Positions 4,652-63,807 of a stretch of DNA of 64,000 nucleotides are shown piece after piece. This stretch comes from Candidatus Bathyarchaeota archaeon. Lineage in GTDB: Archaea > Thermoproteota > Bathyarchaeia > Bathyarchaeales > Bathycorpusculaceae. Within the stretch, counting starts at the first letter, position 1, and each line of letters opens with the position of its first letter. The notes below the pieces were generated by a model. It did no database searches, was not told where the DNA came from, and saw only the letters and a program-made list of their open reading frames with translations. Location of the stretch: NCBI GenBank assembly GCA_963707955.1, contig OY970176.1, positions 1,280,001 through 1,344,000 of the forward strand, in the 5' to 3' direction. A program made the translations under genes and the position numbers.

Positions 4652-4959
4652 GTTGCTCTCTAGGTATCAAGAATTTTGTAATTCATATACTTTTACGCGC
4701 GCGCTCCATTGACCAGCATTAACTCACACACATGCGACAGTCTGCACTGCTCGTCGCGCTAGGGTACAGAACGGTAGGCGGTTGTCAACATAATTAAACT
4801 TCATTTTAACTTCACTCTCTGCTGCTCGGAGACGTCGTCTCACCGCTGCCTTTTTAACAACTTAGCCCGAACTGTACATGGTACGCGCGAATTCTTTAGC
4901 CGCCTTTGAGTGGCGTCACGTTACGTCATTTCTCGCAAGCAACTGATGTTGAACTGGAC

Positions 4960-5087
4960 GTTCTGTAAGTGCCGCTGGATGATTGATCAAGAACAGACTT
5001 TGCTAAGCATGCTGAAAAAAGGGCTGAAGCAGGGAGCAAAATTGGCTTTTCGAGAGCTGAAAGAGGCGTGAAGCCCAGAGTGGGTTT
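4960..5087 (+). repeat. 5' part of a conserved ~190-nt non-coding element (interrupted copy)
   Basis: Aligns with 63134-63266, e.g. TGGATGATTGATCRAGAACAGACTTTGCT and TTTTCGAGAGC. Confidence 0.9.
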
Positions 5088-5267
5088 GGTTACTGGTGCG
5101 TGATTGGACATGAAATCTTCGCGTGCACTATGGACAGTTTAAGTCACAAGTCCTAGATGGGGGTTGACCTGCCGAATTTGATGTATACGTGTTGTTCTTC
5201 TACGTAGCAAGGTTTATATGTAGATAACTACACATGTAGTCATCGCCCATACATGTGAGGTGAAAAA

Positions 5268-5441
5268 ATGGGGAAATTGAACATAAACGTGCAGAAAGAT
5301 GTTGACGAGAAGTTCAGAACAGAAGTATTCAGACGAAAAGGATTGAAGAAGGGCAATATCAAAGAGGCAGTGGAGGAAGCAATGATACTTTGGATTAGCA
5401 CCACACAAAAACCCATTAAGAAAGAAGATAGGAAACCCTGA
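5268..5441 (+). CDS. Small ribbon-helix-helix-like DNA-binding protein (57 aa, not in ORF track)
   Basis: GAGGTGA RBS followed by MGKLNINVQKDVDEKFRTEVFRRKGLKKGNIKEAVEEAMILWIS..., a beta-strand plus two-helix pattern. Confidence 0.75.
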   Translation: MGKLNINVQKDVDEKFRTEVFRRKGLKKGNIKEAVEEAMILWISTTQKPIKKEDRKP

Positions 5442-5454
5442 ACGAAAACTCCAA

Positions 5455-5685
5455 ATGAAAATGAAAATGGAAGAGAGAAAAATGCCCCCAAAACATGAGT
5501 TTCAGTGTTTAATGTCATTGCCCAACCTAGGAGATTACCTCGGAAAATGGATTGCCATAGTAGGAGATCAGGTCGTGGCAAGCGGAACTGATGGAATAGC
5601 AGTATTCAAAGACGCAAAGGAAAAATGCCCAAATAAAGAACCGCTTATCCTGAAAGTTCCGTCTGACAGAGTAATGTTGCTGTGA
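5455..5685 (+). CDS. DUF5678-like small protein
   Basis: YLGKWIAIVGDQVVASG...KCPNKEPLILKVP pattern; the stop overlaps the next gene's start. Confidence 0.8.
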   Translation: MKMKMEERKMPPKHEFQCLMSLPNLGDYLGKWIAIVGDQVVASGTDGIAVFKDAKEKCPNKEPLILKVPSDRVMLL

Positions 5686-6146
5686 TGCACATGCCACGAG
5701 TAGCTATGACTTGTAAATACCTGAGCTACATGCTGCCTGGCTCCAACCCCCCAGTTTCTCTTAACTTACCGATGCTTCACATCAGATTGTCCTGTGGCAA
5801 ATCATCCCTAACCACTATCGGTCTCGTGGATTCCGGCTCAACCACAACCTTTGTTCCTCTGGAGTTAGCAGAGATGCTCTCTATACCAGTTCAGAGAACA
5901 GATACAGCTGTCGGGGCGGGAGGAGGATTCGACAACACCATTAGAAAAGTGAAGATCGACATACTGAAGGGTAAAACGCCTATCGCTATCTTCCCAGATT
6001 TTCCAGCCTATGTCCCAACTGAACCAGACAGAATTCCTTATGTTGTGCTGGGTAGGGACTCGATTTTCAGAAAATTCGACATTACTTTTCGGGAGAACCT
6101 GCAGAGAGTCATTTTTAGAACGCCAAAGAAGAAGAAACTCAGCTGA
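5682..6146 (+). CDS. Retropepsin-like (clan AA) aspartyl protease
   Basis: GLVDSGSTTT catalytic motif, GAGG flap and VVLGRD motif. Confidence 0.88.
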   Translation: MMHMPRVAMTCKYLSYMLPGSNPPVSLNLPMLHIRLSCGKSSLTTIGLVDSGSTTTFVPLELAEMLSIPVQRTDTAVGAGGGFDNTIRKVKIDILKGKTPIAIFPDFPAYVPTEPDRIPYVVLGRDSIFRKFDITFRENLQRVIFRTPKKKKLS

Positions 6147-6302
6147 TCCTCTCGAAGTTTCATAAGTATCCCTCTTCACTCAGGAAGCTTATCACCATAG
6201 TCCTGACAACTTCAGAATCGCTTTCTCCAAGTCTTCCTTCATTAGTCAGATTTCTATAGAAGATTCAAGTTTTCCAATCATGTCCAATCACGCACCATTA
6301 CC

Positions 6303-6366
6303 GTGGGCTTGATTGATGGGTAGGCAGGAATGAACGTGTTTGTCGGTTTCATATTTGGATCATATC
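6303..6366 (+). repeat. 3' part of the conserved non-coding element (interrupted copy), directly upstream of the terminase-like operon
   Basis: GGGTAGGCAGGAATGAACGTGTTTGT matches 63274-63299. Confidence 0.9.
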
Positions 6367-6384
6367 GGTGACCGGGGGTAGAGT

Positions 6385-6693
6385 ATGTCAGAGCGAGAGA
6401 AGAAGAGGTCGGCAAGTCTTGAAAGCCTCATCGCGGATGAATGGGAAATTCTCCGCAGCTTAAAGGACATGATGGAGAACCCTGAGCTGTCTATACAGGA
6501 GAAGCTCAGTACAGCGAACGCTCTTGCTTACCACGCGAGTGTTTTCAGCAAGCTTCTTACGCAGAAGGGTGCAGACGCCGAGCTGAACGAAGCGACTCTG
6601 GGCGACTTCATCAGGGACGTTCAGCCGAGGATTACAAGACGCGGCAGGATGGGCTTCAGACGTTGGATGAGAAGACTTTCGTTGAAAAGGTGA
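6385..6693 (+). CDS. Helical 102-aa protein with basic C-terminus; candidate terminase small-subunit-like partner
   Basis: Overlaps the start of the terminase-like gene; its size and position match TerS. Function is inferred from position only. Confidence 0.65.
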   Translation: MSEREKKRSASLESLIADEWEILRSLKDMMENPELSIQEKLSTANALAYHASVFSKLLTQKGADAELNEATLGDFIRDVQPRITRRGRMGFRRWMRRLSLKR

Positions 6694-8138
6694 CCAACGA
6701 CCTGGCTTTTGCAGCGTCCGTTTCTGAAGGCTTGAGGCGGAGACCGACGGCGTTGAGGCAGCTTCTCGGTTTTGCAGAGGTGACCCGCAGACTCGTTGAC
6801 GACCCCGTTTTCTTTGCGATTCTGATGTGTGGAGACAAGTGGCTCGTTCAAGCCTCAGACCATCAGAAGCTGCTCAGGGACATGAGCCTCAAAACCGTCG
6901 TCGTCTGCGGAAGAGGCTGGGGCAAGAGCCTAGTGTTCAGCAGGAAAAACCTGTGGCTGCTGTTCACAAGGGTCAAGGTGGAGAGCCTCATCATCAGCAG
7001 CACTCAGCGCCAGAGCATGATCATGTTTGACTACTGCTACTCCACCATCATGGCCAACCCGCTCATGAAAGAGATGGTCCAGCATCCGGGAACGACGCAC
7101 ACTACCATCAGGCTCAAACCGCCGCTCGGCGGAAGACTCGTTGCCCTCCCATGCTCACCAGACAAGCTCCGAGGCTACCATCCGGACTGGGTCTTCATAG
7201 ACGAGGCCAGCATCGTTCCCAGCGAGATGATCACAAGCGAAATAATGATGATGCTAACAAAGCCCAACGCTGGCCTAGTCATGAGCGGCACACCCATGGC
7301 CTTCAACCACGTCTTTCACAAAGCCTTCCTAGACAGGAAACGCTACTCAGTGCACCATTATCCAAGCGGCTCAAGCCCCCTCGTAAGCCAACAACAACTC
7401 GACGAATGGCACGACGTAATGACATCAGAAGAATGGAAAAGAGAGGTAGAAGCACAATGGGTTGAAGCTGCAAACGCGTTCTTTCCAATAGACCTGATCG
7501 CACAGTGCATAGACCCCGAGCTGGACAACCCCGACTCAGCCGCCGCCTACATCGAAGACATCGAAAAAGCCAAGCCACAACAGCTTAAACAGCCCTACTA
7601 CGCAGGCCTGGACCTCGGCAAACAAGTCGACCACACCGTCCTAATCATCGTGCAAAAAAACGAAAAAGGCCAAGTCAAACTCGCACACAAACACCAGTTT
7701 CCTCTGGGCACACCTTACCCAAGCATCGTCGGCTACGTGGCTAGAGCCCACCAAATCTTCAACTTCGAACGCCTCTACGCAGACAAAACGGGCGTAGGAG
7801 ACGCCGTAGTCGACGAACTACAAGCCATCAGAGCCGGAAGCGTCAGCGGCATCTTCTTCACAGACATCGAAAAAGAAAACATGCTCAACCACCTCAAGAT
7901 CCTCATGGAAAAACAACTCCTCAAAATCCCAAGCGACGACCAGCAACTAATAACACAGATGAACGAACAGCAATACGAATACCTACAGCCACAAACCGCA
8001 CAACCACGAATCCACCTCAAGTTCTGGCACCCACCAGGCCGCCACGACGACCAACTCTACGCCCTAGCCCTCGCCTGCCGCGCAAGCCTAGAAGCCCCAC
8101 CGCCCGGAGTAGGCGCCATGATGCTCCCACATCGGTAA
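6663..8138 (+). CDS. Terminase large subunit-like ATPase/nuclease
   Basis: Walker A CGRGWGKS, Walker B VFIDEAS, motif III SGTP, and RNase H-like nuclease motifs AGLDLGKQVD, DKTGVGD and HDDQLYALALA. Confidence 0.92.
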   Translation: MDEKTFVEKVTNDLAFAASVSEGLRRRPTALRQLLGFAEVTRRLVDDPVFFAILMCGDKWLVQASDHQKLLRDMSLKTVVVCGRGWGKSLVFSRKNLWLLFTRVKVESLIISSTQRQSMIMFDYCYSTIMANPLMKEMVQHPGTTHTTIRLKPPLGGRLVALPCSPDKLRGYHPDWVFIDEASIVPSEMITSEIMMMLTKPNAGLVMSGTPMAFNHVFHKAFLDRKRYSVHHYPSGSSPLVSQQQLDEWHDVMTSEEWKREVEAQWVEAANAFFPIDLIAQCIDPELDNPDSAAAYIEDIEKAKPQQLKQPYYAGLDLGKQVDHTVLIIVQKNEKGQVKLAHKHQFPLGTPYPSIVGYVARAHQIFNFERLYADKTGVGDAVVDELQAIRAGSVSGIFFTDIEKENMLNHLKILMEKQLLKIPSDDQQLITQMNEQQYEYLQPQTAQPRIHLKFWHPPGRHDDQLYALALACRASLEAPPPGVGAMMLPHR

Positions 8139-63133: not shown

Positions 63134-63325
63134 GTTTTATAAGCGCCGTTGGATGATTGATCGAGAACAGACTTTGCTGGCCATGCTGAAAAAGGGGAGC
63201 AGAGGCAACGAGAAAAACAATTGGTTTTTCGAGAGCGGCAGGAGCCGTGAAGCTCAGAGTCAGCTTGAGAGGCGGGTAGGCAAGAATGAACGTGTTTGTT
63301 GGGTTTATATCTGAATCCAAATATC
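63134..63325 (+). repeat. Uninterrupted copy of the conserved ~190-nt non-coding element
   Basis: Collinear with 4960-5087 plus 6303-6366. Confidence 0.9.
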
Positions 63326-63807
63326 CATGGTACGTTGAAACCGAGGAGGGGAGGGATCCCTAGCCTGCCAGGAAGAGAAAGTGAGTCTATGGGTTTACGC
63401 TTCGACGCCACGGATGGAAGTTGGACCCTAACGCGCACGCTTGTTCCTAAATTCCTAGATTCTGTTCAAGGGAGAAGCATGGCGTTTTCAGATAGGGGGA
63501 TGGTTACTTTCACGGTTCGAGCTGGGTGCTCTCTCGCTCTCACGCCCTCCCCCCCGGGTATCCTATATGGTCCAAATATGGTTGAAGAGCAGAATGAGTA
63601 GCGCAAGCTGCTTCCCAAAAGAATTCAGGAACACGCTAGCGCGCTGTCTTATGAGAGATCGTTCTTCCTTCTAGCCAGGCATGATCACTTAGGACTTCCT
63701 TTTCGCTCCAGATTTGTCCTGTTGATTTTAAGAATTCCGAAGAGAAAAACAATAAGGCTACTATCAACCAAACAGTACTCTTAGAGTTGAAAAGTGAGGG
63801 CACTTGG

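Follow-up and report, generated by a model that had tools for sequence, protein, structure and literature searches.

A transposase-less element with IS6-related ends and a protease operon as cargo in a genome of the Bathyarchaeia

Introduction

Mobile insertion cassettes (MICs) have been found in a small number of bacterial IS families. Examples are MIC231, for which IS231A of Bacillus cereus provides the mobility, and MICs of Proteeae and Aeromonas that carry qnr. They consist of transposon ends that enclose unrelated passenger genes and no transposase, are flanked by a target duplication and depend on a related autonomous element. MITEs are likewise non-autonomous deletion derivatives that retain both transposon ends, but they are non-coding.

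The IS6 family is of great practical importance. As described in a review from 2021, its members are 700-890 bp long and contain a single open reading frame, generate 8-bp target duplications and end in repeats of 15-20 bp with GG tips and the inner motifs cTGTt and caaa, while a zinc finger is restricted to a clostridial clade (PMC7986276). Only one cargo-carrying member, ISDsp3, and two non-coding MITEs are listed there (PMC7986276). A survey of archaeal IS elements contains neither the term “passenger” nor “Bathyarchae” in its main text (PMC13343696). A search of the literature on Bathyarchaeia and IS6, at the level of main texts, found no description of the lineage reported below.

Small operons that combine a DNA-binding protein, a small protein and an enzyme are familiar from toxin-antitoxin systems, of which omega-epsilon-zeta is a three-part example. 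The retropepsin-like enzymes known from prokaryotes, Rickettsia APRc for example, act as processing proteases. Type II toxin-antitoxin systems with ribbon-helix-helix (RHH) antitoxins have been described, in a text that contains none of the words “aspartyl”, “aspartic” or “pepsin” (PMC2701414). A search of main texts returned no published toxin-antitoxin system with an aspartic protease; the papers obtained dealt with toxin-antitoxin systems, defense or archaeal genomics in broad terms, and the term “retropepsin-like” is absent from them.

Here, we analyzed a window of 64,000 nucleotides (positions 1,280,001 to 1,344,000 of contig OY970176.1, assembly GCA_963707955.1) from the genome of a Candidatus Bathyarchaeota archaeon in the family Bathycorpusculaceae, in which an initial annotation, made from the sequence alone, had described a cargo transposon with a three-gene operon.

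Results

Inverted repeats and target duplication

The arms of the inverted repeat were placed by a program at 5091-5113 and 6278-6300 (23 nt, 96% complementary), and are longer when read off the sequence (Table 1). The repeats of about 25 bp with a perfect 20-bp core in the initial annotation were thus recovered: the core is identical in the two arms, has exactly two occurrences in the window, one per strand, and had no match in 100 dinucleotide shuffles. With up to two mismatches allowed, the core was found at no further place in the 2,346,764-base genome besides the two ends of the element.

Table 1. Features of the element, its cargo and the unoccupied paralogous site, in window coordinates.
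Feature	Position	Strand	Remarks
Transposase-less element, 1.2 kb	5088-6302		bounded by inverted repeats of 25/26 nt
Left target-duplication copy	5080-5088	.	GTGGGTTT (5080-5087) plus a G that also belongs to the repeat tip; length 8 or 9 bp
Left terminal inverted repeat, 26 nt	5088-5113	+	perfect 20-nt core at 5094-5113
Cassette upstream region, putative promoter and RHH operator	5202-5267	+	role predicted
TATA-like box TTTATATG	5213-5220		overlapped by near-palindrome ATGTAGATAACTACAC at 5218-5233
RHH-like protein, 57 aa, first cargo gene	5268-5441	+	RHH_6, E 6e-4, below the Pfam cut-off
DUF5678 protein	5455-5685	+	Pfam, E 1e-13
Retropepsin-like aspartic protease	5682-6146	+	146-154 aa depending on the start codon chosen; DSG motif
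Remnant of 51-aa RHH gene, which follows the transposase in full-length relatives, 76 nt	6164-6239	-	residues 20-45
Right terminal inverted repeat, 25 nt	6278-6302	-	core at 6278-6297
Right target-duplication copy	6303-6311	.	GTGGGCTT (6303-6310) plus G; spacing checked against empty sites
Paralogous unoccupied copy of the ~180-bp intergenic module	63134-63317	+	equivalent of the insertion point at ~63260-63268

The flanking duplication had been recorded as 8 bp with one mismatch. Position 5085 is a C in contigs of the public runs X1 and X2, where the duplication is perfect, and the single mismatch is therefore a variant of this assembly; because a G follows each of the two copies, a length of either 8 or 9 bp is possible. 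Both junctions of the element are spanned by independent contigs and were reproduced in four runs. No joint that skips the element was found in the Logan contigs of four runs, which are blind to rare alleles. The perfect duplication in the metagenome contigs and the identical 20-nt cores indicate that the insertion is recent.

The repeats align with those of the related elements described below, which have GGTACTGG as the family tip. At the left end, the window element has one extra T relative to this tip, which gives GGTTACTGG if the duplication is taken as 8 bp, while the right tip, GGTAATGG, differs from it by a single change. Such a deviation by one change at both tips could cripple the ends of the element.

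Empty sites and the insertion neighborhood

The element lies in an intergenic module of about 180 bp, of which two other copies, both unoccupied, were identified. One is located in the window and includes, at 63250-63281, the 32-mer that the initial annotation had quoted as the empty paralog; the other is located 3 kb upstream of the window (genome positions 1276987-1277157). When the flanks of the element were aligned with both paralogous copies, the sole gap consisted of 9 columns, corresponding to the extra duplicate copy, such that removal of the element restores the spacing as had been claimed. In the sister species G001, the orthologous locus (contig 3, 167633-168010) is likewise unoccupied. 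The sequences on either side of it, 93% and 83% identical to the flanks of the element, meet directly with an overlap of 8 nt, which places the insertion after the divergence of the two species.

Within the repeated module, the element was inserted in the 3' arm of a small hairpin, at a distance of 82 nt upstream of the small ORF at 6385, which is followed by a terminase-like gene. The module gave a folding z-score of -0.29 and no meaningful match in Rfam when assessed as an RNA gene. It also fails as a coding region, since the copies differ by a 1-nt indel within the sole ORF. As for the “terminase genes” of the initial annotation, a gene similar to the terminase large subunit is indeed present, but it stands alone with the small ORF and is located in a chromosomal region for sugar metabolism. 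A prophage neighborhood was rejected, as the genes of the window include those for glycosyltransferases, sugar-nucleotide enzymes, aldehyde:ferredoxin oxidoreductase and similar proteins.

A rare transposon lineage with an IS6-type transposase

Repeats related to those of the window element were found elsewhere in this genome, in G001 and, among 120 further genomes from the family, in 6. Autonomous relatives with a transposase, for which the initial annotation had proposed a search, were identified as well. The initial annotation had regarded a repeat found nowhere else, with no empty allele in relatives, as evidence against a mobile element; related repeats occur elsewhere and the site in G001 is empty. 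The ends of the window element belong to a rare transposon lineage in the family of the host.

Seven two-ended elements were examined, five of which contain a transposase (L013 in this genome, L012, L051, L052 and L054), while two do not, namely the window element and L011 in G001. The full-length members are 2.46-4.38 kb long. Besides the transposase, they encode two small proteins, an RHH protein of 51 aa and another protein of 64 aa, and usually have one to three variable passenger genes. They start and finish with repeats of the form GGTACTGGTGCGT.A..GGACAT, and the repeats of the lineage as a whole, which are about 25 nt long, read ...ACTGGTGCGT.A..GGACAT. The transposase is of the IS6-type DDE class with an additional Zn-ribbon (N-terminal CxxC...CxxC); it scored 134.7 bits against the NCBIfam equivalog model transpos_IS6, which has a cut-off of 125, and matched DDE_Tnp_IS240 in Pfam (E 6e-20). 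The target duplications are unambiguously 9 bp in four of the seven elements (L012, L013, L052 and L054), 8 bp in L051, matching at 7 of 8 positions in L011 and 8 or 9 bp in the window element.

The lineage thus shares with IS6/IS26 a transposase that passes the NCBIfam IS6 model, ends that start with GG and a short target duplication. It differs in its greater length (2.5-4.4 kb), in having three conserved genes in addition to the cargo, in repeats of about 25 nt that lack caaa and the IS6 inner motifs, in the N-terminal CxxC...CxxC ribbon of the transposase and in the 9-bp duplications of four of the seven elements.

The repeat core of the resident L013 agrees with that of the window element at 18 of 22 positions, with 3 differences over the 20-nt core, and those of L051 and L052 differ at 1 of 20 positions. 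An identical 20-nt core with GGT tips was recovered from metagenome contigs, where it adjoins a transposase gene (L061, 89% amino acid identity) and also the 51-aa and 64-aa genes (L058). A second transposase gene in the genome (1267472-1268338) is 73% identical, and no terminal repeats were recognizable around it.

The other transposase-less element, L011, recurs as L053 in another genus, at a different site and with a cargo protein that is 72.5% identical. From this pattern, a second transposase-less cargo element of the lineage has evidently moved.

Origin of the window element

No transposase ORF was found inside the element, neither in the ORF list nor in the Pfam and PHROGs scans nor by tblastn with the transposase of the lineage, and the Pfam and ORF scans agree with the initial annotation in that the cargo consists of three compact genes, with matches to RHH_6, DUF5678 and Asp_protease_2. 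Of the parent transposon, only the two ends and a 76-nt piece of the 51-aa gene remain. This piece has no start codon and has an in-frame stop upstream; it is 79-86% identical to L013, L012, L051, L052 and L054 in blastn and 84.6% identical over 26 aa in tblastn. The rest has been replaced by the oppositely oriented three-gene cassette. With only the ends and this remnant kept, the element at 5088-6302 is non-autonomous, in agreement with the initial annotation, and derives from an unusual transposon lineage related to the IS6 family.

Structurally, the window element is the archaeal equivalent of a bacterial MIC. It has the same architecture as the MICs, and its autonomous relatives were found by sequence. 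The differences are that the host is archaeal, that the parent is related to IS6 and not to IS4/IS231 or others, and that this parent already has passenger genes as well as two extra conserved small genes. From MITEs, it is distinguished by three intact genes that are under selection.

We moderately favor a scenario in which the element arrived as a transposase-less unit that was mobilized in trans by a cognate transposase. The candidate mobilizer would be the transposase type that is associated with the identical 20-nt core in the metagenome contigs. The exact element is known from one site only, its core is absent elsewhere in the genome, and the metagenome scan did not recover the core together with this cargo from any other place.

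Alternatively, a full-length transposon may have inserted here, with subsequent deletion and recombination at the site accounting for the loss of the transposase and the acquisition of the protease cassette, in which case the element would be a dead end that never moved as a cargo unit. The single copy, the one-change deviation of each tip from the family consensus, the lack of a transposase with the repeat core of the window element in the genome and the finding that the protease cassette is never located within such repeats in 17 other genomes are all consistent with this course of events. It is nevertheless unlikely, because at least two rearrangements would be needed, a loss of about 2.2 kb that ends in the middle of the 51-aa gene and a replacement of the downstream part by the inverted cassette, and the insertion is recent; to fit both rearrangements into the short time since the insertion makes decay in place the less economical explanation. 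A further argument against it, in line with arrival as a unit, is that the lineage has another element without a transposase (L011 and L053), which occupies different sites in two genera.

Structure of the cargo genes

The nucleotide homology between the cargo and the corresponding cassette in the genome G076 (L018) begins at 5202, and the palindrome over the TATA-like box is kept in L018. Matches to RHH_6 were obtained for all seven of the seven cassette homologs of the RHH-like protein, the best with an E-value of 1.2e-4 and all below the cut-off, and a profile of these proteins matched PDB entry 2k6l with an E-value of 0.022.

The DUF5678 protein is 76 aa long if translated from the longest ORF and 67 aa from the Met codon at 5482, which corresponds to the start of most homologs. 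Its stop codon TGA (5683-5685) overlaps the ATG of the protease gene at 5685 by 1 nt, and its C-terminus, ...VPxDRVMLL, is nearly invariant in the alignment. The AF2 model (pLDDT 79.6) predicts a helix, a beta hairpin, a helix, a strand and a loose tail. No informative structural neighbors were obtained for the model (best E 2.5 with Foldseek against PDB; best Z 3.4 in a wide search with VIA-align), the best match of the sequence profile in PDB had an E-value of 0.16, and the best score in the ESM Atlas, 0.81, was under the usable range. The protein library contains 925 representative clusters of the domain, and no function for it was found in the literature. Among its longer relatives, 2 of the 10 examined combine it with response-regulator receiver domains in a single protein.

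The protease scored 24.1 bits against Asp_protease_2 in Pfam, just under the cut-off of 24.3, and many of its homologs are annotated as PF13650. In 35 sequences, D50-S51-G52, G80-G81 and L123-G124-R125 are invariant and D126 is nearly so. The AF2 model (pLDDT 86.8) has a retropepsin fold, for which Foldseek returned Rickettsia APRc, the HTLV, FIV, RSV and HIV proteases and Ddi1 (probability 1.00, E 1e-5 to 1e-3), and a profile of the protease family matched the HTLV-1 protease with an E-value of 5e-4. The cargo protease is thus predicted to share its fold, the DSG motif, the GG flap and LGRD with the clan AA retropepsins (APRc, PDB 5c9f, the retroviral proteases and Ddi1). It differs from them in its low sequence identity of 10-20%, in being a soluble stand-alone protein of about 150 aa that is extended by about 45 aa at the N-terminus, and in its pairing with DUF5678.

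Distribution of the cassette

Of 301 genomes of the class, 18 contain the cassette; they represent 15 of 107 genera. In the 17 other loci, DUF5678 is located immediately upstream of the protease in 15, and the RHH gene is present in 7. Comparison with the G076 cassette gave pN/pS values of 0.17/0.73 for the RHH gene, 0.10/0.67 for DUF5678 and 0.19/0.77 for the protease gene. These values indicate purifying selection on the RHH-DUF5678-protease unit, which forms a self-contained cassette.

Repeats of the lineage type were not found around the cassette in any of the 17 other genomes that carry it, which gives no support to the suggestion in the initial annotation that the element is spreading this module. 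The neighbors at 4 of the 17 loci include an integrase, ParE, VapB-PIN with AbiEii, and MazE-PIN. At the other 13 loci, no mobile-element, toxin-antitoxin or defense genes were found among the scanned flanking ORFs, and the neighbors that could be named with Pfam are housekeeping genes. The tree of the cassette departs from the taxonomy in that the copy in G020, which belongs to the family of the host, groups with that of another family (support 88/89).

Possible functions of the cargo

The toxin-antitoxin, regulatory or defense role considered in the initial annotation received little backing from the profile libraries with regard to toxin-antitoxin and defense. None of the three cargo proteins matched a toxin-antitoxin family in Pfam, NCBIfam or PADLOC, and the RHH and DUF5678 proteins had no match to PADLOC profiles at E-values up to 5. 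The protease family matches gene B of PDC-M52 in PADLOC weakly, with an E-value of 5e-5 for this protein and of 3e-8 and 2e-7 for relatives, and PDC-M52 is itself an unvalidated candidate system only, for which no mention was found in a search of main texts.

The arrangement of the genes is nevertheless similar to that of toxin-antitoxin operons, with an RHH protein, a small protein and an enzyme encoded in a compact order, a small upstream partner, an overlap of stop and start codons, a palindrome at the promoter and a patchy spread. As toxin-antitoxin genes do, the cassette sometimes adjoins other toxin-antitoxin genes. The main difference is that the candidate toxin would be an aspartic protease. 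By analogy with omega-epsilon-zeta, we tentatively propose, with less than even confidence, that the cargo may be a self-regulated protease/inhibitor module, similar to a three-part toxin-antitoxin system or serving in abortive defense. The RHH protein would bind the palindrome that covers the promoter and so repress the operon. The protease would be the effector and act as an active dimeric aspartic protease, and the translationally coupled DUF5678 protein would restrain it by means of the invariant C-terminal tail, either as an inhibitor or as the first substrate.

The cassette might instead be a regulatory or processing module, in which the protease cuts the RHH repressor or DUF5678 upon a signal, or matures a host protein. 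The top structural match is to Rickettsia APRc, a processing protease, and 13 of the 17 other loci are without a mobile-element, toxin-antitoxin or defense gene in the scanned flanks, both of which are compatible with such a module. So is the output position of DUF5678 in the response regulators (2 of 10 longer relatives), which suggests a role in signaling output or DNA binding rather than inhibition, and a precedent for cleavage of a repressor is provided by ImmA/ImmR, a repressor-antirepressor pair (PMC2701414). However, the cassette has no constant neighbor that it could regulate, its distribution is patchy (18 of 301 genomes) with a tree at odds with the taxonomy, and 10 of the 17 other loci lack the RHH gene, which means that repressor cleavage cannot be the general mechanism. 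On balance, we regard a regulatory module as less probable, and the protease/inhibitor module as the preferred, if tentative, reading of the cargo.

Discussion

The best overall explanation for the window element, to which we assign a probability of roughly 75%, is that it consists of IS6-type transposon ends that lost their transposase and received a protease operon as an inserted cargo cassette. That the inverted and flanking direct repeats merely reflect chance similarity or an assembly artefact can be dismissed, as nothing speaks for it other than the confinement of the exact repeat to this locus within the genome, and it is contradicted by the 100 shuffles without a match, the six other elements with target duplications that are bounded by the same repeat family, the junctions recovered in independent contigs of four runs and the unoccupied orthologous site with its exact spacing.

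A broader reading would combine an IS6-derived cargo shuttle, with a three-gene core, swappable passengers and cassettes moved in trans, with a payload that represents a new three-part class of toxin-antitoxin or abortive-infection systems, in which an aspartic protease is restrained by the tail of DUF5678. We consider this combination quite doubtful.

The window element illustrates that transposon ends can serve as a vehicle for small gene cassettes. The lineage to which it belongs differs from known IS6 elements in that it is archaeal, has two extra conserved genes and variable passengers, and has given rise to at least two different transposase-less cargo derivatives. The compact conserved operon around a retropepsin-like protease and the uncharacterized DUF5678 domain is newly identified and provides a tractable entry to DUF5678 and to the role of stand-alone archaeal aspartic proteases, while the ends and the transposase of the lineage constitute a defined pair for study at the bench. 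Movement of genes by the route of ends plus cargo thus operates in uncultivated archaea too.

Ends and insertion site of the element

The element is well supported as a cargo-bearing, non-autonomous derivative of an archaeal transposon related to IS6 and as a recent insertion into a site found empty in the sister species, G001. The inverted repeats with a perfect 20-nt core described in the initial annotation are real: the core is identical on both sides, is confined to these two places in the window and had no match in 100 shuffles. With up to two mismatches, it occurs only at these two places in the whole 2,346,764-base single-contig genome. A looser, scripted census (at most five mismatches to either of two core variants) returned 26 places, of which four are true ends, namely this pair and that of one other element, and the remaining 22 are unpaired with four to five mismatches.

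The element is bordered by GTGGGTTT on one side and GTGGGCTT on the other, and both of its tips are one change off GGTACTGG. The 8-bp target duplication with one mismatch, also described previously, is present; since a G follows each flank copy, its length is 8 or 9 bp. Four publicly available metagenome runs of freshwater sediment, all from a single study, yielded contigs with the occupied locus; these runs may include the genome's own source sample and are no independent proof of the organism's existence. A single contig covers positions 4700-6415, and position 5085 is a C in two of the four runs, in which the duplication is perfect; the mismatch is thus a variant.

The flanks are part of an intergenic repeat module, about 180 bp long, of which this genome has three copies. 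The sole gap in the three-copy alignment, nine columns at the second duplicate of the occupied copy, corresponds to the extra duplicate, and excision restores the spacing of two empty paralogs, as had been claimed for one. An empty site in a relative, which the initial annotation proposed to look for, was found at the orthologous locus in G001, where the same small ORF and terminase-like gene are located downstream and the flanks (93% and 83% identity) abut directly. It aligns to the computationally excised window site without gaps at the junction. Since the orthologous site is empty, the element inserted after the two species had diverged. It sits in the 3' arm of a short hairpin, AAGCCCA-GAG-TGGGCTT, which is kept with some changes in all five module copies of this genome and G001. 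A coding function of the module was ruled out by a 1-nt indel between copies, and no RNA-gene signal was detected in it (folding z of -0.29, no Rfam match).

Locations of the element, its genes and the loci compared (window positions unless stated otherwise)
Feature	Location	Strand	Size	Remarks
Left inverted repeat	5088-5113	+		sequence reading and repeat scan
Right inverted repeat	6278-6302	-		sequence reading and repeat scan
RHH gene	5268-5441	+
DUF5678 gene	5455-5685	+
Retropepsin-like protease gene	5682-6146	+
Stump of 51-aa RHH gene	6164-6239	-	76 nt
102-aa ORF	6385-6693			precedes terminase-like gene
Terminase-large-subunit-like gene	6663-8138			PHROG 2, E 9e-34
Module copy, occupied	4960-5087 and 6303-6361
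Module copy, unoccupied	63134-63317
Module copy, unoccupied	genome 1276987-1277157			3 kb upstream of window
Module copies, sister species	G001 contig 3, ~167800-168010 and 177180-177420
Second transposase gene	genome 1267472-1268338 (L015 4440-5429)	-		17 kb upstream of element
L013	this genome, 2027101-2030196		3.1 kb	with transposase
L012	G001		2.9 kb	with transposase
L051	G109		2.46 kb	with transposase
L052	G403		4.4 kb	with transposase
L054	G392		2.57 kb	with transposase
L011	G001 contig 13, 30575-32947		2.4 kb	transposase-less; four ORFs unlike window cargo

A transposon lineage with related ends

The lineage that owns these ends was assembled from the blastn search that gave the empty site, in which repeat-like matches elsewhere were identified and their loci fetched. 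Seven two-ended elements were examined; five contain a transposase and two, the window element and L011, do not. All five full-length elements share a 295-301-aa transposase directly followed by genes for a 51-aa RHH protein and a 64-aa protein (L013 3270-3616, with equivalents in L012, L051, L052 and L054), and the two small genes are also found in the metagenome contig L058. The 64-aa protein has weak matches to CasR and to FeoC, a winged helix protein. An extra upstream membrane protein of about 360-385 aa, poorly conserved, is encoded in three of the five, and extra downstream ORFs, which gave no Pfam match, are likewise present in three. The cargo ORFs of the L011 type encode 92-93 aa, 124-125 aa (weak HEPN match, E 0.017), 187-188 aa and 166 aa, the last being two repeats of the 92-aa domain. 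The one-ended contig L053 from another genus (G392 contig 21, from 701) has a lineage-type end at a different site, next to which a protein 72.5% identical to the first cargo protein of L011 is encoded.

Members of the lineage are rare and occur in few copies. Of 121 genomes of the host's family, 7 (this genome among them) contain the repeat pattern with at most one mismatch, as compared to none for reversed-pattern controls, and close relatives of the transposase (E ≤1e-100) were found in two of 301 genomes sampled across the class. L013 and L052, which come from two genera, occupy the same target of about 26 nt in opposite orientations with the same 9-bp duplication, TGTCGAAAG, and this 9-mer is also present at the one visible end of L053. 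Sequences that contain it may be a preferred target of the lineage.

The transposase scores 134.7 bits against the NCBIfam IS6 equivalog, above its cut-off of 125, and also matches DDE_Tnp_IS240. The available portion of a review on IS6 (PMC7986276) gives a length of 700-890 bp, one ORF, duplications of 8 bp, and repeats of 15-20 bp that have GG tips and contain cTGTt and caaa motifs, and it mentions two MITEs, a single cargo-carrying member and a zinc finger confined to a clostridial clade. The lineage has the transposase family and the GG tips in common with IS6, but departs from that portion of the review in element length, in the genes carried, in the motifs inside the repeats and in the length of the duplication (9 bp in L012, L013, L052 and L054, 8 bp in L051, and 7 of 8 positions matching in L011); accessory genes of the 51-aa RHH and 64-aa types fall outside the same description. 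It is therefore referred to here as IS6-related rather than as a typical member.

Derivation and mobility of the window element

The proposal of a cargo element without transposase was borne out, in that the ends match those of transposase-bearing elements and the cassette is located between them, and the suggested search by repeat for an autonomous transposase led to the IS6-type enzyme of the five full-length elements. The stump, which starts about 40 nt from the right repeat, is 79-86% identical in nucleotide sequence to the middle and 3' part of their 51-aa gene. It translates to residues 20-45 of the 51-aa protein (84.6% identity), and a reading of the sequence shows an in-frame stop ahead of it and no start codon. 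As compared to a full-length element, the window element lacks the whole interval that starts shortly after one end and stops midway through this gene. Homology to the full-length elements does not go beyond the stump's stop codon, after which the protease cassette follows in reverse orientation. The free-standing cassette in the genome G076 has nucleotide homology over positions 5202-6089 (70%).

Arrival of the element as a unit already without transposase is the more economical interpretation (probability about 0.6), because the duplication and the cores are pristine and the interior required at least two rearrangements. Decay in place, which is less economical on the same grounds, is an alternative that retains appreciable weight.

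The core of the resident full-length element, L013, is off at 4 of 22 positions (...TTAAGGGACAT vs ...TGATTGGACAT), and a cognate autonomous element with the same core is absent from this assembly. The second transposase gene of the lineage is 73% identical and looks intact; no terminal repeats were recognizable around it. Its locus keeps the 51-aa gene and part of the 64-aa gene, and adjoins a 412-aa ORF without Pfam match and a HATPase_c_3 protein. This transposase is possibly immobilized or domesticated. In JGI metagenome contigs, the exact 18-nt core was found in six stretches, three of which have the family tip GGT and the exact 20-nt core. In L061, a transposase follows (89% identity over residues 7-104); in L058, the 51-aa and 64-aa genes are located before the core; and in L060, a 351-aa membrane protein comes next. 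The remaining three stretches have no such tip and may be unrelated. The exact core beside a transposase shows that a cognate autonomous element exists in nature. This genome, G001 and G392 each contain a full-length element with an AAGGG core and a transposase-less element with an ATTGG core, which would be compatible with cross-mobilization. The off-consensus tips and the single known copy count against present-day mobility of the window element.

Downstream neighborhood

The element is located 82 nt upstream of the 102-aa ORF, in the same orientation, and about 47 nt upstream of a TATA-like motif. Only a four-T run separates the protease stop from the right end, so that read-through into this ORF may be possible. 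As to the terminase genes previously noted downstream, a terminase-like gene is indeed there, but it is a lone gene accompanied by the 102-aa ORF. Next come genes for a GH57 enzyme and glycosyltransferases, an arrangement also seen in G001, and no other virus-like genes were identified nearby. A prophage was rejected, the gene pair standing alone in a chromosomal sugar-metabolism region. A terminase-like paralog (30% identity) is encoded at genome positions 2054857-2056230.

Two further repeats were observed here. Genome positions 830900-831000 hold a 101-nt copy of window 6348-6448 (96% identity) in another genomic context, which spans the promoter-like stretch and the first 21 codons of the 102-aa ORF. 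A MITE-like family of about 215 bp, with ends ...GCGCGC..GTTCCTGAATTC in inverted orientation, is represented at window 63429-63646 and about 24 further places in the genome (25 blastn hits); a 50-nt inner piece (TCATATTTGGATCATAT...) corresponds to the promoter-like stretch at 6349-6402, just upstream of the ORF at 6385.

The protease cassette

For the protease, 75 relatives were identified among 129 candidates in a large protein collection, one of them named [quoted passage not shown]. D50-S51-G52, G80-G81 and L123-G124-R125 are invariant in 35 aligned sequences, and D126 nearly so. The AlphaFold model (pLDDT 86.8) has structural matches to Rickettsia APRc, retroviral proteases and Ddi1. In the protease tree, the window copy groups with that of G076 (98/97 support), and the copy of another genome of the same family sits with a different family (88/89); most remaining branches were not resolved.

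The DUF5678 protein has 32 close relatives and 925 representative clusters at E ≤0.001; almost all are free-standing, 52-120 aa long, and have the domain at their extreme C-terminus. In the cassette type, this terminus reads nearly invariantly ...VPxDRVMLL. Ten longer relatives include two fusions to response-regulator receivers, three tandem duplications and one DUF6899 fusion. The modeled fold is a helix, beta hairpin, helix, strand and loose tail, for which a structural search gave no informative neighbor. The small first gene is RHH-like in all seven homologs, each below the Pfam cut-off.

Across the class, the protease was found in 18 of 301 genomes and 15 of 107 genera, with one match per genome. 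At the 17 other cassette loci, DUF5678 is directly upstream of the protease in 15 and RHH is present in 7; transposon-type repeats were found at none. The flanking genes vary: four loci have an integrase, ParE, VapB-PIN plus AbiEii, or MazE-PIN, and 13 have housekeeping genes or ORFs without Pfam match as neighbors. A Nitrososphaeraceae MAG contains a DUF5678-protease pair with the protease broken into two ORFs, adjoining what reads as a primase-helicase-like gene. The sole PADLOC match in the cassette was between the protease family and PDC-M52B, an unvalidated candidate.

In comparison with the G076 cassette, pN is far below pS in all three genes. The DUF5678 stop overlaps the protease ATG, and both cassettes have a near-palindrome over a TATA-like box upstream of RHH. 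Tentatively, the cargo may be a self-regulated protease/inhibitor module of the toxin-antitoxin or abortive-defense kind; a signal-dependent regulatory or processing module, the main alternative, is somewhat less likely.
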